Shown here: positions 26,093 to 51,100 of the stretch, piece by piece
How positions within the stretch are numbered: the first letter of the stretch is position 1
Layout: every line of letters begins with the position of its first letter
NCBI GenBank assembly: GCA_963704475.1
Contig: OY969900.1
Span: forward strand, 1,301,453-1,365,452
Direction: 5' to 3'
Length of the DNA: 64,000 nt
Origin: an uncultured Alphaproteobacteria bacterium
GTDB taxonomy: Bacteria > Pseudomonadota > Alphaproteobacteria > UBA9655
Notes under the pieces: generated by a model
Told to the model about the DNA's origin: nothing
Seen by the model: only the letters and a program-made list of their open reading frames with translations
The model's database searches: none
Made by a program: the position numbers and the translations under genes

Positions 26093-26976
26093 CTAAACAC
26101 ACTGCATATCGATCAATTTTTTTCTCAGTAGCGTTTCTAAAATAGACAAAGGCGACTTTTCAGGAAAATACATAGAAGGAACGGGCAAATAGAAAGTTTG
26201 CTCAAGCAAAAATTGACCTGATAAGGCAGCGTGAGATGCTTGATCTGTCATCACAACCCATGTACTTCCACTTGGAAAGGAAAACTCCTCTGCATGGGCT
26301 TGCTGTTGATACTGCAGGTCTGCTTTCATCGCGTTATGCAATTGCAGCATGATGAAATCATAGGGTGTACGGTATCCCTGTAATGCCTAATTTCTGGAGC
26401 AAGATTGGAGGAATCCAAGCGCGATGAGAGAGGGACGGGACAAAGTGTTGAGCAACTTGCTCAAACGGTTCTCCAAGACGCCAAACACGTGGTTGCCCAT
26501 GGGGAAATATTTGAAAACACCCGCAATAATCGACGCCCTTGCACAGGTTGAGAGGCAAAAGCATCCACATGAAGGCGAGTGTCATCTTTACGATAAGAAG
26601 ACGCTTTGCGCTCCCTCACGTCTAAGGGGCGGAAGCTTGTTTTTCCCCACTCTAATGAATCTGTATAATAGGGACATAAAGATTCTATCAAGGTTCTGGC
26701 AGATTGAGCAAAACGCAGCATCATTTCCTGGAGAACGGGCGTATCTTCTCTTACAGCATGTCCTTTAAGACTCTGGGTTTGGGGATTAAAGCTAATGTTT
26801 TTTGATTTGGGGGCTTGGCTCGTTGGGGTGAGAAGTTTTTCCTCAGCTGGAAAAAGATCGAAGGCAAGGTGCGAGAGAAAAAGAACGCGCCCCTGTTCAA
26901 TACTTTCTAAAAGAGGATGCTCTCGTTGTTTTGAAAGCGAAAAATGCCACTGTTTGTCTTCTAATGTTTCCAACAT
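26093..26976 (-). pseudogene. kdoO: Kdo hydroxylase (KdoO, Fe(II)/2-oxoglutarate dioxygenase) disrupted by two frameshifts
   Basis: Three consecutive minus-strand ORFs in different frames together recreate a KdoO-like protein: ...RLHVDAFASQPVQGRRLLRVFSNISP / HGQPRVWRLGEPFEQVAQHF...LGITG / (YDF)IMLQLHNAMKADLQYQ...GSTWVVMTDQASHAALSGQFLLEQTF. Confidence 0.72.
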
Positions 26977-32593: not shown

Positions 32594-32869
32594 ATGGTGC
32601 AAGAAAGAGAGAAAAGGATGAGTAAGTCTCGGCATTCAGTTTATGTGGAAGGTAAAAAATCTTATTCTTGGTGTACGTGTCAGTTAAGCAAAAACATGCC
32701 TTTTTGTGATGGTTCTCATCACGGAACAGCATACAAATCCCTCAAATTTTCATGTCTTCGATCAGGTGAAATGGATATTTGTGGATGTGGAAGTACATCG
32801 AGTGCACCATTTTGTGACAAAAATTGTTTTAACGCCGCCGCTCAACAAGATGTCCTTGATCAAAAATAA
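32594..32869 (+). CDS. CDGSH iron-sulfur domain protein
   Basis: Two CDGSH-type motifs: [17 protein letters not shown] and [16 protein letters not shown]. Confidence 0.8.
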
Positions 32870-33347
32870 GAATTTTCAGAACGGCTCCCTTTTCATTATA
32901 GCTGACAAACTCTCCCTGACGTTTTCCTTGAACATAGGTTCCTGAAGCGAAAACAGCTCCTGAGGGGTAATATACAGTCATTTGTCCCTCAAGGCGATCT
33001 TGGTGATAGTGAAGAATCTTTTTAACACGTCCAAATTCATCGTATGCCACATAAGGGCCTTCCTTTTGTCCTTGGTTGAAATGAAGCTGTGTACGTACCA
33101 AGCCATTTGCATCATGGAATGTGGTTTCTCCATGCAACTGACCTCCATGAAAATGAGTACGCATACACGTCCCGTCTTTTCTATAAAATTCAGCAGGTCC
33201 ATGGAGGACCCCGTTTTGATAAGTTGCGCGGTGGTTTGTTTGCTCTCTGACCTGGAGTGCCGGAGTCTGAACCGCCTGCTCTTCTCCCTCTGGTGCCGTA
33301 GTATCAGGCGGAAGTTCTTCTGATATAGGGCTGAGTTTTTCTATCAT
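32829..33347 (-). CDS. MORN-variant repeat (YwqK-like) protein
   Basis: 172 aa. Repeats [13 protein letters not shown] / [11 protein letters not shown] / [17 protein letters not shown] / [12 protein letters not shown] / [15 protein letters not shown]. The start codon overlaps the vgrG stop (ATGA). Confidence 0.72.
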
Positions 33348-35611
33348 AGGACCATCGGTATTTGACCATCAATGGTGACAAGTCCCATAAGTTCGATGGT
33401 TGCTGCTGTTTCAACAATCGAAGCTCCAGCGGTGAGTTCAAGAGCTGCCCCAGCTGTTATGGCGGCATTGGCGCCTGCGGTGAGCTCGACAGCGGCACCT
33501 GCAGTTATTGCCGCATCTGCTGCAGCTGTGATTGTAACGGCTGCGCCCGCTGTGATTTCCGCTGCTTCTCCGGCTGTCATGGCAAGAGCCGCACCCGCTG
33601 TTATTGATGCCTCTGCGCCAGATGTGAGTGTCAGAGCCGCACCCGCTGCTATTGCCGTATCCGCTCCCGCTTTGAGGGACATCGCACCCCCTACGTCCGT
33701 ACTCAATGCAGCGGCTGTCTTTATATTCACCCCTTTTGCGGCATCAATATTAAAAGTACCTGTGCATTTGACAGACATGTTGCCATCAACATCAAAGCTT
33801 ACATTGCCTTTCGTACAGGTAACCGTGATATTTCCCTCCATCAGCTTAATTGAATAATTTCCCTTATCAATTTGTAGGGATTTATTTCCTTTTGTTAATT
33901 TTACGCTGACATTGCCATCCGTTAATTGGAGGGAATAATCACCCTTATCGATATGAATGGATTTATTCCCGTTCTTTAATGTTAAACTGTCATTACTTTT
34001 GTCGCCGGAGCGTTTTTCAAGATGTTCTTCTTTGGACTGAAGTGTAATGGTTCGGTTGCCGCCAACAACCGTAATTTCCTGGTTGTTTTGGACAAGAACC
34101 TTTAAATCTTTTTGAGCATGGAGATAAATCTCCTCCTCGCCCTTTTTATCTTCAAACCGTAACTCGTTGTAGCCTGGTTCTGACTCTTCGCCTTTTTTAG
34201 ATGTTTGAGTTTTTATTGTTGCTTTTGTTGGGTGACCTGGCAAATAGGGGGGCTTGTGGTCCCCATTATAAACGGATCCTACAACCAGGGGCTTATCTGG
34301 GTCCCCATCAATGAAGGATACAACTACCTCTTGACCTACACGGGGGGTAAATAATGTCCCCCAGGTTTGTCCGGCCCATAGGGTTGCAACGCGAATCCAG
34401 CACGAGGTTGAATCATCGTTTTTTTCTGAGGGATCCCAGTGAAATTTAACCTTAATACGACCGTATTCTTCCGTATAAATTTCTTCGCCTTTTTTCCCCG
34501 TCACTTTGGCTGTCTGTGTGCCATAGATATAAGGTTTTGGGGTAATGAGAGGTGCTTTAAACGGAACAGTGGCTGGAAAGGCCCGATAGCTATTTTCATA
34601 AAGGTGCTGGCCTTCTTCTTCCGGCACACGTCGCGCTTCATGGATCACTTCCATCAACACGTATTCTAAGTTTGCATCCTCTCGCGGGTGCTCTTTCAAG
34701 TGGAACTTGTATCCAGCAAGAAAGAAGGGAACAGTTGAAAGGCCTTCCACCATTTTTTGAGATCTTTCTGCGGCTTGGAGCTTTACCTTACTTAAGCTAT
34801 CTCCACGGCTTTGTTTGTCATAAATTTCCTCATAATCCGTGAGATTCCCTCCCCCACTCGTCGAATTTCCTGTAGCAAGGGCTTTAAGCTGCGTTTGAGG
34901 CGTTAGATAATTATAACTCTTCAGTGTGTTGCTTTTAGGAACAATACGCTGTGTAATACAGCAAGAACTAACACGTAGCATAACCTGGTCCATAACGGCA
35001 CTATCATGAAAGTTTGCAGAAGCAGCATGAGGACACGGATGATGCGCTGCTGGTGCATCTGCCAGAACAAGGGTATGATTGTCTTTCGTTTGCTGAAAGA
35101 AATAAAAAATCCCCTCTCTCTCCATGAGTCGTGAGATAAAATTAAAGTCTGTTTCATTATATTGAACACAAAAATCAAGGGGAGCCTTGCCAGAATGTGT
35201 CACCTTATCTGAATGAGGAATTTGGTGTTCACTCAAAACATGTTTGATGATGTCAATGGCGGACTTGTTTTGGAAAATACGACATTGCCCAGAAAACGTT
35301 AAAAGCCAAAGTTTAGGGTAAAGAATCGCTTTATAATTTGTTTGATATTTTAGGGGTTTAAAGGGTGTGTCATCTTGTTCAAAACACCCAATAATTCCAT
35401 TGTAGGTACGGGTTTCAGATCCTATTTTAAGAGAAACCGTTGCGCTTTTCCCCATCAATGAGCTGAAATTTACAGTACGACTTTCAGATGTCATGAAAAG
35501 CGTATATTCAAACAGAGAAGATAGACGTTCAATGCCTCGGAAACTTTGGAGTGTAAAAGTCTCAGAAGGTGTTTTGACATCTAAAAAGACTTTATCTTTC
35601 TGATCCGGCAT
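33344..35611 (-). CDS. vgrG: type VI secretion spike protein VgrG
   Basis: FTLQSFRGIERLSSLFEYTLFM N-terminus, GQEVVVSFIDGDPDKPLVVGSVYNG gp5 OB motif, and a C-terminal 8-residue beta-helix repeat (ITAGAALE/LTAGANAA...). The ATG at 35611 with an AGGA RBS is preferred over the TTG at 35644. Confidence 0.9.
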   Translation of the reverse strand: MPDQKDKVFLDVKTPSETFTLQSFRGIERLSSLFEYTLFMTSESRTVNFSSLMGKSATVSLKIGSETRTYNGIIGCFEQDDTPFKPLKYQTNYKAILYPKLWLLTFSGQCRIFQNKSAIDIIKHVLSEHQIPHSDKVTHSGKAPLDFCVQYNETDFNFISRLMEREGIFYFFQQTKDNHTLVLADAPAAHHPCPHAASANFHDSAVMDQVMLRVSSCCITQRIVPKSNTLKSYNYLTPQTQLKALATGNSTSGGGNLTDYEEIYDKQSRGDSLSKVKLQAAERSQKMVEGLSTVPFFLAGYKFHLKEHPREDANLEYVLMEVIHEARRVPEEEGQHLYENSYRAFPATVPFKAPLITPKPYIYGTQTAKVTGKKGEEIYTEEYGRIKVKFHWDPSEKNDDSTSCWIRVATLWAGQTWGTLFTPRVGQEVVVSFIDGDPDKPLVVGSVYNGDHKPPYLPGHPTKATIKTQTSKKGEESEPGYNELRFEDKKGEEEIYLHAQKDLKVLVQNNQEITVVGGNRTITLQSKEEHLEKRSGDKSNDSLTLKNGNKSIHIDKGDYSLQLTDGNVSVKLTKGNKSLQIDKGNYSIKLMEGNITVTCTKGNVSFDVDGNMSVKCTGTFNIDAAKGVNIKTAAALSTDVGGAMSLKAGADTAIAAGAALTLTSGAEASITAGAALAMTAGEAAEITAGAAVTITAAADAAITAGAAVELTAGANAAITAGAALELTAGASIVETAATIELMGLVTIDGQIPMVL

Positions 35612-35851
35612 CTTTATTCCTTTTTTATTTCCTGCCGCCGTCAACTGCTTTTTTTGGAGTTTTCGAGAATGAGTATGCCGTAAGCAAAGGTATATTTCAA
35701 AAGCTTTCTGAGCGTAATCCTGACTTCTTAAATACTAATTCTATATTTACTCTATACTTAATTTATACAATTTATTTACTGTATTTAACAAATAATAAAC
35801 TATTTTAATTTATTATAAAAGTATAGAGAATATTTTTGTATATGGAGTACG

Positions 35852-38047
35852 ATGATGAAAAAAATTATATTTGCACTTGGAATGACAACCTGTTTAGAAA
35901 ACATCGTGTTAGCAGGCGCTGATTCAAATGCCCTTATGACCGCAGACTCTCTCCATAATCTAATTGCTCAGCAAGCAAAAAAAACAAAGAATATTCAACA
36001 CACCTCTTTTCGGACGGGGATACCCGCCTCGCAGGGGATATCCGCCTCGCACTTACTTGAGACGAGAGGAGAAATGCCAACAGAAAACTCTTCTCATAGA
36101 GCATACACGAATTTTGCACATACCACCTCAACCGTAACTCATAGTGACAGCAGAAGAGATACGCACAGTGATAATGATAAGCAACTTGTAGCTCCAGTTG
36201 TCACTTCTACAGCACAGTCTTCTGTCGTTCCAATGACGCATTCAAGTAGTTTTTCTTCATCTGAAACACATGTATCTGCTACGAAGCGGCATCCGTCTGC
36301 AGCGCAGAATGAGATTTTTTATGCTACGCAACTTAGCCCTACAGAGCAGATTTCTGCAGCACAGCCCTCTGTTGGCTCTACGCACTCACCTGATTTTAGT
36401 ACCAGCCACGTTTTAACATCAGCTGAGGGGGGGGTAATTCATCACGATGATAGCAATTCAAGGGGACGTATTACACGTCAGGACAGTTTTGGGACAACAC
36501 CATCAGAAGGTAGTCGAGCACAATCGAGTCCTTCAACGCCGAGGTCTAATAGGCCTCCCCTCGTTTCTTTTTTGAGGGGGAACGACAACGAACTACCATC
36601 TCCCACAAATGATAGAGGTGCTCCTCCTCCACAGAGAAGAAATACACTAGCGGGATTAGACTTAGCAGGTCTTCCAACTCATATGGGGTCTCGTACAGGG
36701 TCAGCAGTAGCCTCTGCGTTACAAACGCCTCGAGGTGGTACACCAGGTAGGGCCCCACAACGTGCTGATAGCAATGTTAGTAGTATTAGTACATGGACAT
36801 CAGTGTCATCAGCGGCAGCAATGTCATCAGCGGTAAGTATCAAAGAGGAGTTCGTGGTAGACCCAAGAAGAGGCCAACCACGAACCCCTGCGGGAGCTGC
36901 TGTTGTAGCGAGTGACAGCACAACCCCCTCCTCCTGGGCATTTGTTGGTGAGGAGCACGAAGGACAAATAAGCGGCGCAGCTAAGGGGCGGAAAGATGAT
37001 TCTGATACAGATGATGCTCCTCCTCCTGGCGCTCCTCCTGAACGCAGAAGTACACTGCGACAAGAAGACCTAGCAAAACCAGGAGGAGGTCCTGGTGGTT
37101 TTTTGCGTTCTATCGCACAATGGTGGAACTCTACTGCTAACGACCATTCTGCTGATGGGGCAGTTGCTTCTGGTGGAGGACTTTCTGTTTTCGCTGGGGG
37201 AAATCCTGTTGCTGCTGGGAGAGGTCATGCCGGTATGGCATCTTCTTCAGGAAATGGCCAGTCGAATGCAGCTCCTGTTGTTGCGGCTTCTTCCCCTGCT
37301 CATGCTGTTGCTAGTACCCCTGATCTAGAGGGTTGGTCCGATTTGGAATCGGGTGGAAAAACTCCTCCTTTATTTAATAAAAGAGACGACGGAGCAGATC
37401 CTCTTCCTGATTCCGGTGGTTTTGTTGGTGGAAATCTTTTTGCGAATGGGGGCGCGGCTCGAGATGATTCGGGGACTCCAAGCGGTTGGAGCAGTAGTAG
37501 TATGGCAGATAACACGGGTGGAGCAGGAATAGCAGACGCAGGAAATGATTCTAGTGGCGGTGGAGCAGGAGGAGATTCTGGCAGTGGTTCTGATGGAGGT
37601 GGTAGCGGCGGTGGAGCTGCCGGAGGAAGTGACGCTGGTGGTAGCAGTGGTGGAGCAGGTGGGGGGAATGATGGAGGTGGTAACGGCGGTGGAGCCGGTG
37701 GAGGAAATGATGGTGGTGGTAACGGCTCTGGGGGCGGCTCAGGGGGTGGTTCTGATGGAGGTGGTAGCGGCGGTGGAGCCGGAGATTCTGGCGGCGGTGG
37801 AGCAGGTGGAGGAAATGATGGTGGTGGTAACGGCGCTGGGGGCGGCTCAGGGGGTGGTTCCGATGGAGGTGGCGCCGGCAGCGGTGGAGCAGGTGGGGGG
37901 AATGATGGAGGTGGCGCCGGCAGCGGTGGAGCCGGAGGAAATGATTCCGGTGGTGGTGGAGCTCCAGGAGATGGCGCCGGTGGTGGAGCACCAGGAGGAG
38001 ATGCTGCTGGTAATAATAACAAAGATGGTGGTTGCGCTATAGCGTAG
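35852..38047 (+). CDS. hypothetical secreted, disordered Ser/Thr/Pro- then Gly-rich protein ending in the CaaX box CAIA
   Basis: 731 aa with a GGAG RBS and a signal-like N-terminus MMKKIIFALGMTTCLENIVLAGA. About 190 C-terminal residues are G/N/D/S/A repeats. The last codons are TGC GCT ATA GCG TAG (38033-38047). Confidence 0.6.
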   Translation: MMKKIIFALGMTTCLENIVLAGADSNALMTADSLHNLIAQQAKKTKNIQHTSFRTGIPASQGISASHLLETRGEMPTENSSHRAYTNFAHTTSTVTHSDSRRDTHSDNDKQLVAPVVTSTAQSSVVPMTHSSSFSSSETHVSATKRHPSAAQNEIFYATQLSPTEQISAAQPSVGSTHSPDFSTSHVLTSAEGGVIHHDDSNSRGRITRQDSFGTTPSEGSRAQSSPSTPRSNRPPLVSFLRGNDNELPSPTNDRGAPPPQRRNTLAGLDLAGLPTHMGSRTGSAVASALQTPRGGTPGRAPQRADSNVSSISTWTSVSSAAAMSSAVSIKEEFVVDPRRGQPRTPAGAAVVASDSTTPSSWAFVGEEHEGQISGAAKGRKDDSDTDDAPPPGAPPERRSTLRQEDLAKPGGGPGGFLRSIAQWWNSTANDHSADGAVASGGGLSVFAGGNPVAAGRGHAGMASSSGNGQSNAAPVVAASSPAHAVASTPDLEGWSDLESGGKTPPLFNKRDDGADPLPDSGGFVGGNLFANGGAARDDSGTPSGWSSSSMADNTGGAGIADAGNDSSGGGAGGDSGSGSDGGGSGGGAAGGSDAGGSSGGAGGGNDGGGNGGGAGGGNDGGGNGSGGGSGGGSDGGGSGGGAGDSGGGGAGGGNDGGGNGAGGGSGGGSDGGGAGSGGAGGGNDGGGAGSGGAGGNDSGGGGAPGDGAGGGAPGGDAAGNNNKDGGCAIA
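37540..38010 (+). repeat. imperfect in-frame tandem repeats encoding GGGNDGGGNGxGGGSGGGSDGGG-type units
   Basis: ggaaatgatggtggtggtaacggc[tc/gc]tgggggcggctcagggggtggttc[t/c]gatggaggtgg occurs twice about 108 nt apart (about 37703 and 37811), with shorter ggtgg/ggagg sub-repeats throughout. Confidence 0.8.
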
Positions 38048-41984: not shown

Positions 41985-42119
41985 GTGAAGCGCACTTTTC
42001 AACCCAGTAATCTTATCCGTAAACGTCGCCATGGCTTTCGTGCACGTATGGCTACCGTTTCAGGACGTAAAGTCATTGCCCGTCGCCGTGCAAAAGGACG
42101 TCATCGTCTTAGTGCCTGA
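41985..42119 (+). CDS. rpmH: 50S ribosomal protein L34
   Basis: Not in the ORF track. Manual translation from the GTG at 41985 gives [44 protein letters not shown], preceded by an AGGAGA RBS. Confidence 0.92.
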
Positions 42120-42453
42120 CCTCTCCCTAGAAAAGCTGACAAAGCGCTCAGAGTTTTTAGCTGTTGCAAAGGCAGGGCTCAAGTCGGTAACACCTGCCTT
42201 TATTGTTCAAGCCCATAAGCGATCTTCTGAAGAAAGCAGTCGTTATGGCATCACAGCTAGCCGAAAAGTAGGGAACGCAGTGAAGCGCAACCGCGCAAAA
42301 AGACGCCTTAGAGCTTTAATAAGGCAGACTTTTCAGCTAAAAAATAAACCAGGCACAGATTATGTTCTGATCGCGCGTGCAGAAGTATTGCGGCGTAATT
42401 TTGCTCTCATGGCTCAAGAACTTGAGATCGCCTTGAAGCGATTAAACAGTTAA
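42112..42453 (+). CDS. rnpA: ribonuclease P protein component
   Basis: [10 protein letters not shown]...[23 protein letters not shown] motif. The only plausible start is the GTG at 42112, which overlaps the rpmH stop. The ORF-track start at 42031 lies inside rpmH. Confidence 0.78.
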
Positions 42454-42517
42454 ACACCTTGCCTCTCCTCCGCAGAATAATATATTCTGTCCTATGAAAA
42501 AGGGAGGGACGGAGGAC

Positions 42518-43450
42518 ATGATCACAAAATTTTTAGACCCAAAAAATGACCTTGCGTTTAAACGGATTTTTGGCACAGAACGAAACAAAGACATTCTGAT
42601 CCATTTTCTTAATGATATGTACGGGCGCACAACCAATCCTATAGAGGACGTCACTTTTTTGAAGACGAATCTTGATCCGAAGATTGCTTCACAGCGAGAG
42701 AGTATTGTCGATGTTTTATGTCGCGATACCTTAGGCGAGCATTTCATTATTGAGATGCAGGTGTCGGATGAGCCTGGCTTTGTTAAGCGTGCCCAACATT
42801 ATGCCGCCAAAGCCTACATTGAGCAGCGGGATAAAGGGATTGGCTATAAGGATCTAAAATCAGTTACATTTATGGCCATTACAAGCTATATCCTCTTCCC
42901 CGATAAAGCTGATTATTTGTCCCATCATCAGGTGCGGGATGTAGCAACAAACGAGCATGATCTTAAAGATTTTTCGTTTACTTTTTTGGAGCTTCCAAAA
43001 TTTAAGCTTACAAAAGACCAGCTCACAACGATGACACAAAAATGGGCGTATTTTTTCAAAAACGCGAAGGAAACCCACGAGGCAGAGGTGGAAGCCATTG
43101 TTGGCGCAGATCTCATCCTCAAACGGGCGTATGAAGAACTCAACCGATTTGGGTGGTCGCAAGAGGAGCTCCGTGGCTATGACTCTGTGGATATGAAAAG
43201 AGAATCTGACAAAGCTTGCCTCTGGGGCGCTGAAGAAAAAGGCTTGCAAAAAGGCCTTGCGCGGGGACGGAAGGAAGGAAAAAAAGAGGGAATTAAAGAG
43301 GGGATCGCAAAAGGGATGGAAAAGGGTATGGAAAAGGGCAGAAAAGAAATTGCTAAGGCACTGCTGAAAAATGGCATGGATGTCGAAGAAGTGGCTAAAA
43401 TAACTTCTCTTCCCTTGGAAACGATTGAGCTGTTGAAGATAGAACAATAA
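42518..43450 (+). CDS. Rpn-family recombination-promoting nuclease / PD-(D/E)XK putative transposase
   Basis: LDPKNDLAFKRIFG N-terminus, IVDVLCRD...FIIEMQV nuclease core, and a Lys/Glu/Gly-rich C-terminal repeat followed by an LPLETIELLK helix, as in TIGR01784/PF12784 proteins. The ORF track begins at 42494. Confidence 0.8.
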   Translation: MITKFLDPKNDLAFKRIFGTERNKDILIHFLNDMYGRTTNPIEDVTFLKTNLDPKIASQRESIVDVLCRDTLGEHFIIEMQVSDEPGFVKRAQHYAAKAYIEQRDKGIGYKDLKSVTFMAITSYILFPDKADYLSHHQVRDVATNEHDLKDFSFTFLELPKFKLTKDQLTTMTQKWAYFFKNAKETHEAEVEAIVGADLILKRAYEELNRFGWSQEELRGYDSVDMKRESDKACLWGAEEKGLQKGLARGRKEGKKEGIKEGIAKGMEKGMEKGRKEIAKALLKNGMDVEEVAKITSLPLETIELLKIEQ

Positions 43451-43684
43451 ATGCGATTTTTTGTAGGCATCCTTTTAAAGTCCCTTATTTACATCTATCG
43501 CTTTTTTATTTCTCCTCTTCTCCCACCCCGGTGTCGGTTTTTGCCAACATGCTCTGTGTATGCTCTTGACGCGCTAACGCGTTATGGTCCATATCGGGGA
43601 AGTATTTTAGCGTTAAAAAGGCTTTGCCGCTGTCATCCTTGGGGAGGACATGGCTTTGATCCGGTTAAAGAAGAGGAACCATGA
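43451..43684 (+). CDS. yidD: membrane protein insertion efficiency factor YidD
   Basis: 77 aa. [23 protein letters not shown]...YG and [11 protein letters not shown] motifs. Confidence 0.88.
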
Positions 43685-45375
43685 GCGACCAAAAAAATTT
43701 ATTTATTGCCATTTTCCTGGCGCTTGCGATTTTATTAGGGTTTCAGTATTTCTTCCCCTCTTCTCCTGATCAGAGAGTTGAAGCGCCATGCCCTCAAGTT
43801 GAAAAGCAACCTACTCCTCTTCAGGCTGTACCGACTATAACACGAGACCAAGCTATACAAGCCGTTCCCCAACGCCTCCCCCTTCACACCAGTAAGATGA
43901 AAGGATCGTTAAACCTTACAGGAGCACGCTTTGATGATTTAACGCTCACAGCCTATCATGAAACCGTCAACCCACAGAGTCCTGAAATTACCCTGCTCTC
44001 TCCTGCGAGCTGTACATCAGCCTATTATGCTCGTTTTGGGTGGAGCCCCCTTCAAGGGATAGCACTCCCCGATGAGAACACTCTATGGAAGACAAATGAC
44101 ACGACTCTCACAGAGCAGACCCCCGTTACTTTAATGTGGGACAATGGCCAAGGGCTTCTTTTTCAACAAACAATTTCTGTTGATGAACAGTATATGTTTA
44201 CCATTACCCAAAAAGTAACAAATACGACTGCAGGCCCTGTTTCCCTTACCCCACACGCCGTATTAAACCGGGGGGGCGATCCTAAATCATCGGGGTTCTT
44301 TATTCTTCATGAAGGCCCGGTTGGCGTTTTCGAAGGCAAACTATCGGATCCAAGCTATGACGATATTGCAAAAACTGGGTCTCTTGAAAATCCAAAAGCA
44401 AAAGGGTGGTTAGGGTTTACGGACAAATATTGGCTCGCGGCTCTTATCCCTGATCCTTCTGCTCCTATGACGTCTTCCTACACCCGCAAAGGGTCAGGTG
44501 AGGCAACCCTGATGACGGCCACCTATCAAAGAGATCCTCTCCCTATTGCTCCTGGGCAAAGCCTTGAGATCACGGATCATTTTTTTGCAGGGGCTAAAGT
44601 ATTACGCCTCCTTGATGGGTATCAAGAAACGCTTGGGATTAATCACTTTGATTTAGCTGTTGATTTTGGGTGGTTTTATTTCCTTACAAAACCTATTTTC
44701 TATGCCCTTGAGTTCCTCAAAGATATTTTAGGAAACTTTGGGCTTGCGATCTTAGCGCTGACTGTTTTGATTAAGCTTGTCTTCTTGCCGCTGGCCAATA
44801 AGTCCTATCAATCCATGGGAAAAATGAAGGCCTTACAACCAGAAATTGAAAAAGTGCGCGAAAAGTATGCCGATGACCGCATGAAAATGAATGAAAAAGT
44901 CATGGAGCTTTACAAGCAAGAGAAGGTCAATCCCTTGGCGGGGTGCTTGCCTATGGTTGTTCAGATTCCTGTGTTCTTTGCCCTTTATAAGGTCTTGTTC
45001 GTCAGCATTGAAATGCGCCAGGCGCCATTTTTTGGATGGATTCATGATCTGTCAGCGCCAGATCCGACGACGGCCTTTAACCTTTTTGGCCTTATTCCTT
45101 GGGACCCTCCCTCTTTCCTCATGATCGGTGCGTGGCCATTAATGATGGGATGCACAATGTTTTTGCAGCAAAAGATGAGCCCCCCACCGGCTGATCCTAC
45201 GCAAGCTAAAATGTTCCTTTTGATGCCCATTTTCTTTACCTACCTTTTGTCCCAATTCCCTGCAGGGTTGGTGATTTACTGGACATGGAACAACGTCCTG
45301 TCTGTGGGACAACAGTGGATCATTATGAAGCGCGCGCAGAAGAAAAGTGCCACAAAACATGCTTCAAGATCTTAA
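43681..45375 (+). CDS. yidC: membrane protein insertase YidC
   Basis: 564 aa with a large periplasmic domain and then a conserved C-terminal core ([35 protein letters not shown]). Confidence 0.95.
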
Positions 45376-46112: not shown

Positions 46113-46195
46113 TTTGTTATGAAAGCACGCGCCTATTCTGCCCTCTGTGTCCTCGCCTCTTACCTCTGGACCCTGATTCAATGGATAGTGTTTTA
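46113..46195 (+). pseudogene. 3-prime relic of a paralogue of the 46827-51023 gene
   Basis: ttgttatgaaagcacgcgcctattctgccctctgtgtcctcgcctcttacctctggaccctgattcaatggatagtgttttaa aligns with 50941-51023, the last 27 codons and stop of the large gene. In the matching frame it reads VVMKARAYSALCVLASYLWTLIQWIVF*. Confidence 0.7.
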
Positions 46196-46215
46196 ATACC
46201 AATGATAGTGTTTTA

Positions 46216-46594: not shown

Positions 46595-46826
46595 CACAGG
46601 TCTAAAAATATCAGATATTCGAATATAAAGTATTTTTTAAACTCTTTAATGCTTGACTTCCAAGAAAGATGGATCTTTAGTGAAAAAAAAAGATAAGAAA
46701 TATGATGAAGCTGTTAAAGATAAAAAGACAGCCACGTGAAAGATTCAATATCATGAGTGCAAGGAATTGTTGTATAGTATCTCACAGTCTCGGGGAAACG
46801 CGCCAAGATGGGGAAGGGGAAGAAAA

Positions 46827-49800
46827 ATGATCCGATTATTTTTCTTTCAAAAGTTCTTCTCTCAAAAACATCTGCTGGTTGCCCTTCGTTCTTTTGGGAC
46901 CCGCGTTCTGTGTTGGCTCCTTATCAGTTCAATTCTTGCCTCTGATTTAGCCTATGCGATGCAAAAGCCAGGGCTGGGGCAGCACGCGGATGATGCATCA
47001 GGTGTCGTTGTCCCCCCCTCAGTTCCAGTTCGACGCCAGGATGCAGCTGCATCTGCTGCAGTACCTCCTCTTCCCGATAGTTCTACCTCCTCATCGAGTC
47101 GGCGTTTTCTCCATGATACAGCAGAGGAGGGTACGTCTCTTGGTATGAGGTCCCCCTCAGGAGTTGCGGTTGCAGGAGCTGCGGTTTCTGGAAGTGAGAG
47201 TGTTCCAGTCGTGGCTATGCTTGCAGCAAAACTAGAAGATGCCGCAAGACCAGCAGATGCTGCGCAACAAACAGATGTCGCAAAACCACGAGGGTCTTCT
47301 GACGAAACAACCCCAGAGAGAAAACCATCTCCGCCAGGATCTGGATCAGGGTCTTCAACACCTCCTGGGGAAAATCCTTTGGCACAACGCACGTCGTCAG
47401 GGACTCCCACGCCACCCGGTGGATCATCTGGGAACGAATCATCAACTTCTCACCCTGTTGGAGTACCCGCCACCGCTCAGCCTCTTCCTACAGCATCTGC
47501 CACCGCTCAGTCTCTTGTGGAGGTCGCAAGAGCTGCGTCTCTTGCCTCTGCACCTCCTCCTGTGCCTCTTACACCTGCAGCTGGTTTAGCTACTGGGGTG
47601 AGTCAGGGTGATAAAAAAGTACCCACTCCACAGAGGGCCCCTCTAGACCCACATCGCCCTTCTGCAGCTCCAGCAAATGAAAACACCTCCTCTCCTAATC
47701 TTGAGATTCCAAGTAATTCTCGTTTTTCCGCATCTGTAGTGCAGAGAACGCATATCATCAATGACGACGATCCGGGGGCTTTAGCTCGGGGAAATGAAGA
47801 TAGCGATACGGACACTGATCCTGATTCTGAGCTTGATTGGGGGGGTATAATCTATCCACGTGGCCCACGTTCTGAAGCTGGCCATTCGTCTGCTGCAGAG
47901 GGAGGAGATGAAAAAACTCCGCTTCTTCCTTCTGCGTCTAGTTCCGCCCGTTTCATGCAGGAAGGCCAACGTCTCGTCGATGAATATAACCGTCTCAAAG
48001 ACGTACACGGAGAAGATTCTCCGGAAGCGCTTGAAGCTAAGCGTCTCATGGATCAATATTATGCCATAGATAATTCGGAGGGATCCGGGGGACGGAAGCT
48101 TGGACCGAACCAGGGGCGCCTGAATGATGAACAGCTGAAAGAGCTTTTCGGCAGGCTTCATAACTTCGACCCGAAAACAGCTGAATTCTTACGCTACGCT
48201 AAAGACTCCATCATCGATGGTACGTTGACCAAAAAACAAATGGCGGCTCTGCTCTTTGCCATAGTCATGGGAGGGGGGGCAGGGGCGGCGGCAGCGGCTC
48301 CATTGATGTATTCATTAGCTTATTTTAGTAATGAGTTTAAGGAGGGTAATTTATTAGGTTCGATCCTTCCGTTCTTCGTAAATGTAACCCAAGCTCTCGA
48401 TGCCATGTCCCGTTTAGGATCGAACGCGGTGAGGATAGCACGTCCTGATTCAGAGGCCTTTTTGATGCCTGTGACGTCAGCTCATCGATGGGTGAGATGT
48501 GTAGCCCTCGGATTAATCGTTTTAGCCTCCACGGCTTTGGCAGTGCTCCCCCTTTATTATCTCTATGAAGCTCAATTTAAAAATATGCTTGTTGCCAAGA
48601 GTAAAGGAGAAGACGTCACGCCTATTGAAATTTTCCTCTACATAACCGCTCCTGGATATCTATTGTACCATATTGTGGCCCATAGTGGCTTTCCCGGTGT
48701 GAAGTGGGCACTTGAGATGGTGAAGGAGATTTATTATGCCCCTTTGCGTCAAGCAGCGCCCCAAGATGAAAAGATGCGTAATGAGATTTCATGGCGTCTT
48801 CAAGATACGGTCCGTCTGTTGAATCACCTGTCAGATGGGGAGATCGATCAATTCTATACCCTCCTTTTTGAGCGACGGGTTGAGGACACACCCCATCTTC
48901 GGTCTTTGTTAGACGGATCGATATGGCAGTCAAGGGGGAAGGTTTTTTACACCGTGGAAGAAATTAACCGTTTGACAAAGAAAGGCGTGTTGCGGCCACA
49001 AGATGTTGAGCTAACTGAAGAAGAAAGAATCGCCCTTGCCTCTGCTTTGCGGAAGAAACAACAAAATCTTCAAGCTGATCCTGTGATCGGCTCGCTCTTG
49101 AAGAAATATGCAGAAAAACGGTCTGAAGAAGCAAGAGTTACCCTTGCCGCTGCGTTGAGACAGAAGAACCAGAACTTAAAAACTGATCCAGTGATCGGTC
49201 CCATACTTAAGAGATATGTAGAGAGACGTCAGCAGACCGAATCTAGCTTTTCATTAGACGAGGCTGAGAGAGACTTGATTCTAGGTAGAATAGAGGTCGA
49301 ATGTAGTTTTTCATTGGACGATGCCGAGAGATACCTGACTCAAAGTCGTGCGCTCACCCCAGATGAAATAGGGGCCGCAACTCAAGCCCTCTGCGTTTGG
49401 TATTTAAGACCAGGGGCTGTGCTTACACCGCGAGAAATGGAGCGTCTGACCACAAAAGGTTTCCTTACGGATCAAGATAAGGAAATGACAGATGAGGAAA
49501 GACTTAAGCTTGCGCAAGACATGAAGGAGGATGCGTGGAACGCCGTCCTTCAGCGTCACCTCGGCCGCCAACACCAGTTTGTGTCTGTAGAGGAGCAGAA
49601 TAAATACTTTGCTAAGAGTCGCACGCTTAAAGAAGAGGAAAGAGAAGCCGCTCTTCAGACCCTTATCACTCAAATGGAAGCCATGCGGACCTTAGGAGTC
49701 ATTTCGGCCTTTCACGACGAAAATTACAAATCCTTTCCGCAAGCCCTGCCACAGGAAAAGATCCATGATCTCTCCGATAAGGTTGCAACTACTTCAAAGG

Positions 49801-51023
49801 CACTGTCCGTTGTTGGGAAAGCGGTCGCTTTTTATTGGTTGTTTAATGGGTTTTTAGCAACTCCAAATTTCGTAGAAGATCCTGCGACATCTGCGAGCAA
49901 TGGGAATACAAGTAATGCAAATACAACGGCGGGCAATATGACAGTCAGTGGAAACGACGCACCTTTACCAGGCCCTGCAGGTCACTTCATTGCGGCGGTG
50001 CTGACAGTGGGTGAAATGATTGTTCTAGGGAAAATTGAGAAGAACGGTGTGCGGAACTTTTTCTTCCGCCTGATGGGGGGGAAGGACCTCAACGATCATA
50101 CCTCCCACCCCTTCCCCCGTATGGCGATACGGATCCTTTCTGGTCTTGTCGGGGCGTTTAATACCCTCCCCTTTTTAATCTTAGGGATGAAGGCAACGGA
50201 AAGTTGGGGAGATAGCCCTGGGGCAATTGTGGGAAAAATCCTCCTGCTTGCCCCTTACGTTTTTGCAGATATTTTCCGGAACATACGAAACTATTTAGAC
50301 CCTTATCAAGCCCTCCTTTCTGCGTTTGAGAAAGTATGGGCGAAGATATATGGCAAATGTGGGTGTGGGCCTACTTGTGAGCCGTCGTCTGGATATAAGC
50401 GGGATACGTTGAAGGCGATACTCATTGCTATCTTGGAGCTCTTTGGAGATGCCGCCTGGGAAGTTGTCAGAGATCTGAATAAGTTGATAGGCTCAAAAGC
50501 CTTAAGGGGGGGAGAGCAGAAAAACCCCGGTAGGTTTCAGACGGCAAGAGGCGCTATAGAATGCGACGATAGTCACCCCGTCCTTGGTACGTTGGTAGAG
50601 GCTTTGAAAGCGACAAACCGAGTGCCACCAGAAGACGGATTTTTAGAGTTAGACGAGGCCTCACGAGCGTCCTTTGAGTCCTTAATGGCTACCAAAAGTG
50701 GCACGAGGGTGCAGGGAAGTCAAGCTGCCACTTACGGAACTGGGACAACTGCAGCTACTAGTACAGGGGCACAAACACCCATAGCCGTTTCTCCTCTTCC
50801 TGATGGGGACGACCAAGCAGTCCTGAGTCAGTTCCAAGAGCAGCGCTCACAGGCTGCGGAGCCGCCGCTGACGTTGTGTGAGAAAGGAGCTGCTCGTTGG
50901 ACGCAATTTCAAGAGGAGATTGAGACGCAGGGACTGTGTGTTGTTATGAAAGCATACGCCTATTCTGCCCTCTGCGTCCTTGCTTCTTACCTCTGGACCT
51001 TCTTCCAATGGATAGCGCTCTAA
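46827..51023 (+). CDS. hypothetical large polytopic membrane protein with a disordered N-terminal third, internal repeats and a C-terminal tail anchor
   Basis: The ORF track gives 1418 aa. The ATG at 46827 gives MIRLFFFQKFF...VLCWLLISSILASDLAYA (signal or anchor). About 330 S/P/A/T-rich residues follow, then at least 8 hydrophobic helices, repeated RLTxKGxLxxQDxExTxEER modules, and a terminal hydrophobic YAYSALCVLASYLWTFFQWIAL. Confidence 0.6.
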   Translation: MIRLFFFQKFFSQKHLLVALRSFGTRVLCWLLISSILASDLAYAMQKPGLGQHADDASGVVVPPSVPVRRQDAAASAAVPPLPDSSTSSSSRRFLHDTAEEGTSLGMRSPSGVAVAGAAVSGSESVPVVAMLAAKLEDAARPADAAQQTDVAKPRGSSDETTPERKPSPPGSGSGSSTPPGENPLAQRTSSGTPTPPGGSSGNESSTSHPVGVPATAQPLPTASATAQSLVEVARAASLASAPPPVPLTPAAGLATGVSQGDKKVPTPQRAPLDPHRPSAAPANENTSSPNLEIPSNSRFSASVVQRTHIINDDDPGALARGNEDSDTDTDPDSELDWGGIIYPRGPRSEAGHSSAAEGGDEKTPLLPSASSSARFMQEGQRLVDEYNRLKDVHGEDSPEALEAKRLMDQYYAIDNSEGSGGRKLGPNQGRLNDEQLKELFGRLHNFDPKTAEFLRYAKDSIIDGTLTKKQMAALLFAIVMGGGAGAAAAAPLMYSLAYFSNEFKEGNLLGSILPFFVNVTQALDAMSRLGSNAVRIARPDSEAFLMPVTSAHRWVRCVALGLIVLASTALAVLPLYYLYEAQFKNMLVAKSKGEDVTPIEIFLYITAPGYLLYHIVAHSGFPGVKWALEMVKEIYYAPLRQAAPQDEKMRNEISWRLQDTVRLLNHLSDGEIDQFYTLLFERRVEDTPHLRSLLDGSIWQSRGKVFYTVEEINRLTKKGVLRPQDVELTEEERIALASALRKKQQNLQADPVIGSLLKKYAEKRSEEARVTLAAALRQKNQNLKTDPVIGPILKRYVERRQQTESSFSLDEAERDLILGRIEVECSFSLDDAERYLTQSRALTPDEIGAATQALCVWYLRPGAVLTPREMERLTTKGFLTDQDKEMTDEERLKLAQDMKEDAWNAVLQRHLGRQHQFVSVEEQNKYFAKSRTLKEEEREAALQTLITQMEAMRTLGVISAFHDENYKSFPQALPQEKIHDLSDKVATTSKALSVVGKAVAFYWLFNGFLATPNFVEDPATSASNGNTSNANTTAGNMTVSGNDAPLPGPAGHFIAAVLTVGEMIVLGKIEKNGVRNFFFRLMGGKDLNDHTSHPFPRMAIRILSGLVGAFNTLPFLILGMKATESWGDSPGAIVGKILLLAPYVFADIFRNIRNYLDPYQALLSAFEKVWAKIYGKCGCGPTCEPSSGYKRDTLKAILIAILELFGDAAWEVVRDLNKLIGSKALRGGEQKNPGRFQTARGAIECDDSHPVLGTLVEALKATNRVPPEDGFLELDEASRASFESLMATKSGTRVQGSQAATYGTGTTAATSTGAQTPIAVSPLPDGDDQAVLSQFQEQRSQAAEPPLTLCEKGAARWTQFQEEIETQGLCVVMKAYAYSALCVLASYLWTFFQWIAL

Positions 51024-51100
51024 AACAGATCCCTTGGAGGTCTGACTTTAAAGTGCTATCCGTGAAGAGCGATGGGTTTCCTGTCTTTTGAGGAGACCTC

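Follow-up and report, generated by a model that had tools for sequence, protein, structure and literature searches.

The vgrG gene and its MORN partner

The 64-kb stretch of DNA discussed here, which we call the window, comes from an uncultured alphaproteobacterium (contig OY969900.1) and carries a vgrG (tssI) gene, for the spike protein of a type VI secretion system (T6SS), followed directly by a gene for a small protein with MORN repeats. The features of this locus are given in Table 1. The preliminary description of the window, made from the sequence alone, had recognised a full VgrG architecture with a gp27-like N-terminus and a gp5 OB motif, and this is borne out by matches to the Pfam families Phage_GPD (PF05954, E = 3.1e-77, 260 bits), Phage_base_V (PF04717, E = 4.5e-16, 59 bits) and Gp5_trimer_C (PF22178, E = 1.2e-17), by the presence of the motif GQEVVVSFIDGDPDKPLVVGSVYNG, and by NCBIfam models TIGR03361 for TssI/VgrG (547.9 bits with a cutoff of 186) and TIGR01646 (388 bits). 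The hub and OB-fold are in one polypeptide, above the curated thresholds, and are accompanied by a gp5-type beta-helix, which places the protein in the VgrG/TssI family, and the gene encodes a bona fide and intact T6SS spike protein. The open frame on the minus strand runs from 33344 to 35644, and translation probably begins with the ATG at 35611, which has AAGGA eight bases before it.

Eight C-terminal repeats of 8 residues had been described for VgrG. Octad beta-helix repeats are indeed present, but there are about 12 clean units (AGAALTLT, AGAAVELT etc.) between aa 648 and 743, a segment with 35% Ala, 14% Thr and 11% Gly, and a tandem repeat at the DNA level was looked for in these repeats and not found. 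The beta-helix repeats go on to the end of the protein, and Pfam, the alignment and the octad register gave no toxin or enzymatic domain at the C-terminus.

The vgrG and MORN genes are translationally coupled. The overlap reported in the preliminary description is seen in the sequence ...CCG ATG GTC CTA TGA TAG..., in which the ATG of the MORN gene (33347-33345) and the TGA of vgrG (33346-33344) overlap as ATGA, and the orthologous pair in a sister species (locus L003, DNA about 84% identical, VgrG 83% and MORN protein 74% identical by tblastn) has the identical 4-bp overlap.

The partner protein scores 34.6 bits with Pfam MORN_2 (PF07661), above the gathering score of 29.6, and a hidden Markov model (HMM) of its family matches it with E = 1.7e-67. 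In the AlphaFold2 model (mean predicted local distance difference test score, pLDDT, 83.6) residues 1-36 are disordered with pLDDT below 50, and the part from residue 39 to 172 consists of six beta-hairpins, with pLDDT above 90 and a period of 23 residues, in good agreement with the disordered Pro/Glu-rich N-terminus and following MORN repeats first described. Score and fold together put the protein in the MORN_2/YwqK repeat family. The best Foldseek matches to the model are MORN1, junctophilin, radial-spoke MORN proteins and the N-domain of SET7/9, with no enzyme among the matches, and at the sequence level the PDB gave SET7/9 and eukaryotic MORN proteins only. The sole NCBIfam match, to LIC20035 adhesin repeats, is below threshold. 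Where the structures of MORN domains have been solved, the domains act as adaptors that bind proteins or lipids, as for example in MORN4/Myo3a and junctophilin/CaV1.1.

Both genes are under purifying selection. Comparison of the window with the L003 orthologues, for which the synonymous divergence (dS) is about 0.6-0.7, gave ratios of nonsynonymous to synonymous divergence (dN/dS) of 0.065 for VgrG and 0.21 for the whole MORN gene, the latter made up of 0.14 for the repeats and 0.65 for the disordered tail, which is under relaxed constraint. The neighbouring housekeeping genes for glutamate dehydrogenase (GDH) and flavin reductase have values of 0.12 and 0.15. Three samples of the window species, and also the sister species, have undisrupted open reading frames (ORFs) for VgrG and the MORN protein, and these intact frames and the dN/dS value for VgrG speak against the decay of vgrG that had been considered earlier. 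The sequence of the locus is present in only five soil metagenomes, all of them DNA.

Table 1. Features at the vgrG-MORN locus (coordinates in the window)
Feature	Position	Strand	Basis
vgrG (tssI) coding sequence, stop included, 755 aa	33344..35611	-	ORF and start context, Pfam, TIGR03361
gp27-like hub domain, aa 28-327	34631..35530	-	PF05954
gp5-like OB-fold, aa 380-448, with motif GQEVVVSFIDGDPDKPLVVGSVYNG	34268..34474	-	PF04717
gp5 C-terminal trimerisation domain / start of beta-helix, aa 465-531	34019..34219	-	PF22178
Ala/Thr/Gly-rich 8-residue beta-helix repeats, aa 648-751, with lineage-specific tail	33359..33670	-	Octad register, alignment
ATGA overlap, vgrG stop / MORN gene start	33344..33347	-	Sequence
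MORN_2 (YwqK-type, TseF-like) gene, stop included, 172 aa	32829..33347	-	PF07661, family HMM
Acidic Pro/Glu-rich disordered N-terminal tail, aa 1-38, isoelectric point (pI) 4.05	33234..33347	-	pLDDT, pI, dN/dS
Six MORN beta-hairpins, aa 39-172, pI 9.2	32832..33233	-	AlphaFold2, Foldseek, dN/dS
Convergent CDGSH iron-sulfur gene, overlapping last 41 bp of MORN gene	32594..32869	+	PF09360, synteny
AT-rich divergent intergenic region 5' of vgrG	35612..35851	.	Sequence, consensus scan

The pairing in related genomes

The search with the MORN protein gave 10 matches to close homologues, and a MORN-family gene is now known directly 3' of vgrG in about 18 independent related loci from alpha- and betaproteobacteria, including main T6SS clusters. 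This position was found in every related locus examined (L003, L004/5, L006, L007-L015, L018, L023/24, L030, L031, Azospirillum and P. phymatum). The preliminary description had proposed a look for the pairing in related genomes, and had thought a lone module of spike and partner unusual; the pairing is there, and both these loci and the Holosporales literature discussed below make the arrangement the rule in the clade. None of the approximately 18 loci has a toxin gene or domain adjoining the MORN gene, and the label "YwqK antitoxin" is therefore unsupported.

The window species itself is found in two metagenome assemblies (L001 and L002). The sister species has the gene order of the window, vgrG-MORN-CDGSH-flavin reductase-GDH. 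L004/L005 has a 48% identical MORN homologue in the order vgrG-MORN-DUF4280, DUF4280 being a PAAR-like protein, and in L006 a 28% identical homologue ends the cluster TssE-TssF-TssG-ClpV-DUF4280-x-x-VgrG-MORN. The scan with one genome per species added nine loci (L007-L015), all from metagenome-assembled genomes (MAGs) labelled Alphaproteobacteria or Holosporaceae, and each has VgrG (644-693 aa), MORN (229-230 aa) and DUF4280 (130 aa) in this order. In two of the nine (L009 and L012) the DUF4280 gene is followed by a gene for a 413-aa protein and then by a reversed flavin reductase gene, and the chromosomal site is that of the window. Flavin reductase and NAD-GDH genes flank the locus in L003, L009 and L012, and this flanking synteny across the clade points to vertical inheritance and not to a mobile island. 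The DUF4280 gene directly follows the MORN gene in L004/5, L007-L015, L023/24, L029 and L030, and a 4-bp overlap of MORN stop and DUF4280 start is frequent in the relatives.

In the main T6SS clusters of the alphaproteobacterial contigs L018 and L023/L024 the family HMM picked out unannotated genes directly after vgrG (E = 1.4e-44). The order in L023/L024 is TssB-TssC-Hcp-x-TssE-TssF-TssG-ClpV-VgrG-MORN-DUF4280, and vgrG-MORN-DUF4280 is found in the same T6SS-cluster layout in L030, which is on a contig with 62% G+C content (GC). This order, with the PAAR-like gene at its end, matches that of the right-hand operon of the H3-T6SS of Pseudomonas aeruginosa, which we take to be PA2365-PA2375 in the PAO1 annotation. 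The homologues in Paraburkholderia phymatum and on a megaplasmid of Azospirillum brasilense were matched by the family HMM with E = 7.8e-41 and 9.9e-40. In the P. phymatum T6SS-b on pBPHY01 the vgrG gene (Bphy_5985) is followed by genes annotated "YwqK family antitoxin" (Bphy_5986) and "PAAR-like protein" (Bphy_5987) (PMC8356804). The order TssF/TssG-ClpV-VgrG-MORN-DUF4280 of these two species, with the DUF4280 gene of Azospirillum about 1.6 kb downstream and on the opposite strand, shares vgrG-MORN with the window, but they differ in having a complete cluster, a MORN protein of about 227-247 aa, and a free-living or plant-associated way of life.

We made three further observations on the T6SS genes of the relatives. 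In the Holosporaceae-type and alphaproteobacterial clusters L018-L020 and L023 the gene after tssC has a weak match to PF05638 (Hcp), and is followed by a conserved gene for a domain-less protein of about 200-218 aa before tssE, and the published absence of Hcp/TssD from Holosporaceae T6SSs may be a matter of divergence instead of absence. In L021 (ERZ4224321 NODE_89), from a more distant relative, a TssB-TssC-x-x-TssE-TssF-TssG-ClpV cluster lies a few kb from an NAD-glutamate dehydrogenase gene, with no vgrG nearby, and the GDH is 55% identical to that of the window; pieces of the T6SS may have been separated by rearrangements around the GDH region. Lastly, tssG, vgrG, clpV and tssF are in multiple short fragments in L017 (CP060261.1, Holosporaceae bacterium, 1.02 Mb) and L030 (JBBCBH010009660.1). 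Intact copies of the L017 genes were found in other samples (L018-L020), and the fragmentation is likely to reflect assembly frameshifts and not pseudogenisation.

The window lineage

The Pfam scan of the window covered every ORF of at least 120 aa, so that a shorter one, for instance for a PAAR protein of about 100 aa, would lie outside it, and found no T6SS gene (hcp, tss, clpV, PAAR/DUF4280 or adaptor) other than vgrG. Nothing further was found in the window by tblastn with TssE, TssF, TssG, ClpV and DUF4280 of a relative, and a DUF4280 HMM had no match in any of its frames; there is likewise no DUF4280 gene beside the L003 orthologue. The earlier statement that vgrG is the only T6SS gene in the window thus stands. 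There is also no toxin near vgrG-MORN in the window, where the MORN gene has vgrG and the convergent CDGSH gene as its direct neighbours.

The window and L003 lack the DUF4280 and 413-aa genes of the nine MAG relatives, and have instead the convergent CDGSH gene overlapping the 3' end of the MORN gene. Their MORN protein is short by about 60 N-terminal residues, equivalent to 2-3 repeats (172 as against 229-230 aa), and in an alignment with 12 related VgrGs, mostly of 644-698 aa, their VgrG has a beta-helix that is longer by about 60-110 residues. It also has a new C-terminal tail, DGQIPMVL, beyond the usual terminal strand, where those of the relatives end in ...LITLNG. By these comparisons the window lineage has lost the adjacent DUF4280 gene, and in it the MORN protein has become shorter and the beta-helix of VgrG longer.

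Holosporales T6SSs and TseF

To judge from how the related MAGs are labelled and from its small genome, the organism is probably a Holosporales-type alphaproteobacterium. According to a 2025 review, nearly every Holosporineae genome has a conserved T6SS (PMC11909080). In Holosporales the T6SS genes lie at no fewer than four separate sites, and [ywqK-vgrG] is one of them (Midha et al., PMC8163844), and in all diplonemid endosymbionts a YwqK-family gene adjoins vgrG and is named as an immunity protein (George et al. 2020, bioRxiv 719211). The same two genes are paired, apart from other T6SS genes, in Ca. Bodocaedibacter vickermanii, Paracaedibacteraceae, Caedimonadaceae, Cytomitobacter and Nesciobacter, which like the window organism have small alphaproteobacterial genomes of the symbiont type. 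In these two papers (PMC8163844; bioRxiv 719211) the partner is called an immunity protein or antitoxin, and the DUF4280 neighbour that we find in most relatives is not mentioned.

By architecture and position the closest characterised relative of the MORN protein is TseF (PA2374) of P. aeruginosa, a 178-aa protein with MORN motifs encoded beside vgrG3 (Lin et al. 2017, PMC5379069). The amount of TseF in the supernatant is strongly reduced by deletion of clpV3, hsiB3-C3 or hcp3, GST-TseF retains VgrG3, and TseF binds the Pseudomonas quinolone signal (PQS) in outer-membrane vesicles and docks on FptA/OprF for iron uptake (PMC5379069). [quoted passage not shown] The window protein resembles TseF in being small (172 and 178 aa), in having MORN/MORN_2 motifs and in being encoded directly 3' of vgrG. 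It differs in that the small PAAR-type gene adjoining in the TseF family is missing from the module, and that T6SS core genes are not adjacent.

Word-indexed searches gave no Pseudomonas homologue of the MORN protein, and in a profile search for Pseudomonas TseF the best 150 of 78,018 matches were all long multi-repeat MORN_2 proteins. A search of the literature found no published link between TseF and the Holosporales ywqK genes. Burkholderia BPSS1504 (TagAB-5), which is encoded downstream of vgrG-5, was considered as a MORN protein and set aside, as it is a DUF2169 and pentapeptide-repeat protein (PMC13584744).

Role of the MORN protein

We think the locus is probably the spike module of a T6SS that is dispersed over the chromosome, with the MORN protein as a non-toxic cargo or accessory carried by VgrG, or as an aid to assembly of the spike tip. 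Such a T6SS would have a gene set like that of the H3-T6SS and the dispersed arrangement typical of Holosporales-type alphaproteobacterial symbionts. The vgrG and MORN genes would be made together from one transcript, the basic beta-sheet of the MORN repeats would, by analogy with TseF, bind the VgrG trimer, and by the same analogy the MORN protein would either be carried along by the spike, as a cargo or accessory that is not toxic, or take part in assembly of its tip, and would neutralise no toxin. In most relatives the third coupled gene would supply a 130-aa DUF4280 PAAR-like cap, the gene for which has been lost from this site in the window lineage. The binding to VgrG, the export and the remaining T6SS genes of the window genome are parts of this proposal that we infer, with the relatives, the literature and the evidence for selection pointing to a T6SS core in the genome. 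An auxiliary vgrG site of a T6SS located elsewhere had been named in the preliminary description as one outcome that would make the module an ordinary one, and this is probably what we have; the pairing of the MORN protein with a known toxin in relatives, which was part of the same outcome, was not found.

Several points weigh against this interpretation. T6SS core genes were not found for the window genome, and no TssF cluster could be attributed to it among the 120 listed of 422 matches. What connects the MORN protein with TseF is its domain type, its size and the position of its gene, and the known TseF partners PQS, FptA and OprF are specific to Pseudomonas and cannot explain function here. 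An alphaproteobacterium of the symbiont type with 1.46 Mb is not likely to have them. The module could also be changing its function, given that the adjacent PAAR-like gene is lost. With regard to the TssF matches, one contig carrying such a gene (P0012) was considered as the window's own and rejected; its tetranucleotide correlation with the window is 0.82, as compared to 0.95 within the window.

The main rival, to which we give a distinctly lower but real chance, is that the MORN protein stays in the cytoplasm as a chaperone or adaptor, stabilising the tip of the VgrG trimer and loading the DUF4280 cap or other cargo, in a role analogous to that of the DUF2169, DUF4123 and DUF1795 adaptors. 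Its place in the relatives between vgrG and the PAAR-like gene, with translational coupling to both, would suit such a role, as would its retention inside main T6SS clusters in the manner of a structural accessory, and in the solved structures mentioned above MORN sheets serve as protein-protein adaptors. DUF2169 proteins are chaperones for PAAR-like proteins and are encoded at the same position (2026 review, PMC13584744). The review deals with T6SS accessory factors, and MORN and YwqK do not figure in it (PMC13584744). However TseF, the sole characterised member of the family, was found in the culture supernatant in an H3-T6SS-dependent manner, and in the window lineage the MORN gene is still under purifying selection although the adjacent PAAR-like gene has been lost. 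The preliminary description had left cargo, adaptor and immunity protein as options, and with no toxin in about 18 loci and the analogy with TseF, cargo or adaptor is more plausible than immunity.

We regard it as improbable that the protein is a YwqK-type immunity protein, acting against a T6SS toxin that would be VgrG itself or an effector encoded elsewhere. That is the reading adopted by George et al. and Midha et al., and the Pfam match to MORN_2, the YwqK family, and the 'YwqK family antitoxin' labels given to homologues by NCBI and JGI favour it, but this annotation comes by repeat-family transfer only. No cognate toxin gene or domain is adjacent in the loci compared, VgrG ends in plain beta-helix repeats, and the MORN gene lies between two spike components and not after an effector gene. 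Its synteny with vgrG is fixed from 0.6-Mb endosymbionts to free-living Paraburkholderia and Azospirillum, unlike that of immunity genes with their fast turnover. YwqK itself is the antitoxin of the LXG deaminase toxin YwqJ of Bacillus subtilis, and is the source of the NCBI/JGI label. The B. subtilis protein and that of the window share the MORN_2 repeat family (PF07661), but the latter is encoded in a T6SS spike operon, with no YwqJ-like or other toxin adjacent and no polymorphic-toxin cassette. It is just as improbable, in our view, that the pair is a relic of a T6SS lost from the genome, persisting transiently or for some T6SS-independent function. This would account for the lack of further T6SS genes in 64 kb, for the loss of the adjacent DUF4280 gene and for the lack of an attributable TssF cluster among the matches listed, but neither ORF is disrupted in the three samples of the species or in a sister species that is about 84% identical in DNA, the dN/dS of VgrG is below that of the neighbouring housekeeping genes, and a conserved T6SS, normally dispersed, is reported in nearly all Holosporineae.

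Surrounding genes

The neighbours had been described as housekeeping genes with no toxin nearby, and the Pfam scan agrees, giving only housekeeping or domain-less proteins. There are genes for DNA and cell-cycle functions (MutS, SSB, GyrA, an AddB-like nuclease, ParA/ParB, GidB and Rho), for envelope and lipid A functions (UbiA, an ABC exporter, KdtA, LpxK, a lipid A acyltransferase, LptE, YidC, TonB and a TonB-dependent receptor) and for others (among them a 1607-aa NAD-glutamate dehydrogenase, flavin reductase, CDGSH, MGMT, HIT, EamA, a dicarboxylate symporter, RnpA and LeuRS), together with two tRNAs and a few domain-less proteins. In the intergenic region 5' of vgrG there are minus-strand sigma-70-like sequences at 35819-35792 and 35700-35672, which are consensus matches only, with no evidence of function.

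Divergent from vgrG there is a 731-aa ORF (35852-38047, plus strand) without a Pfam domain. Its product has a signal-like segment at the N-terminus, is rich in Ser, Thr and Pro in the middle, and has a long C-terminal half rich in Gly, Ser, Asp and Asn that is encoded by imperfect 39-108-bp tandem repeats; the local GC is 58% with a GC skew of +0.36, in a window of 44.5% GC. This may be a surface or secreted protein. Apparent ORF differences in this Gly-rich neighbour gene in L001 were considered as polymorphism, but are probably assembly indels; the alignment of L001 and the window has 99.45% identity and 19 gap openings.

Another ORF without a Pfam domain (46767-51023, plus strand) encodes 1418 aa, of which the N-terminal third is rich in Ser, Pro and Ala, and there are several hydrophobic segments. 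The final 86 nt of this gene (50941-51026) are duplicated with 85% identity at 46114-46199, about 570 bp before its start, which points to a former tandem paralogue or to some rearrangement. The rnpA and yidC genes are usually adjacent, but in the window a gene for a PD-(D/E)XK family transposase (42494-43450, plus strand; PF12784, 1.8e-49) is situated between rnpA (42031-42453) and yidC (43681-45375). A 171-aa ORF (26461-26976, minus strand) has a match to Kdo hydroxylase, PF11004, that covers only positions 3-147 of the 275 in the profile, and is followed on the same strand by a separate ORF of 85 aa (26093-26350). The Kdo hydroxylase gene at 26093-26976 may be split or frameshifted.

Implications for annotation and biology

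With regard to annotation, we suggest that the antitoxin label for these genes is probably wrong, given the lack of an adjacent toxin, the position between VgrG and a PAAR-like cap, the purifying selection and the positional equivalence to TseF. For the window itself the result is mainly corrective, in that a module that looked like an orphan is ordinary for its clade.

A broader proposal, which we put forward as speculative and rather unlikely to hold, is that the MORN/TseF-like protein is an ancestral and near-universal spike accessory of H3-like T6SSs, and neither an iron effector of Pseudomonas nor an antitoxin, and that the window lineage has a spike without PAAR. If the protein is such an ancestral accessory, it has been kept beside vgrG even in endosymbionts of 0.6-1.5 Mb without PQS or pyochelin systems, and it would serve in general as a bridge between the tip of VgrG and the DUF4280 cap, or attach to the membranes of a target or host. 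If the spike of the window lineage is indeed PAAR-less, then the PAAR-like cap that was lost would have been replaced in its role by the longer VgrG beta-helix with its new tail, together with the shortened MORN protein.

The MORN family also occurs in organisms for which PQS or pyochelin systems are not to be expected, and this suggests for the iron-uptake role of TseF in Pseudomonas that it is a derived speciality within a more general spike-associated family. The T6SS is considered the main candidate for a host-interaction machine in Holosporales symbionts, and to our knowledge no substrate of a Holosporales T6SS is known. The MORN protein would be the most conserved candidate for a cargo or spike accessory of these systems.

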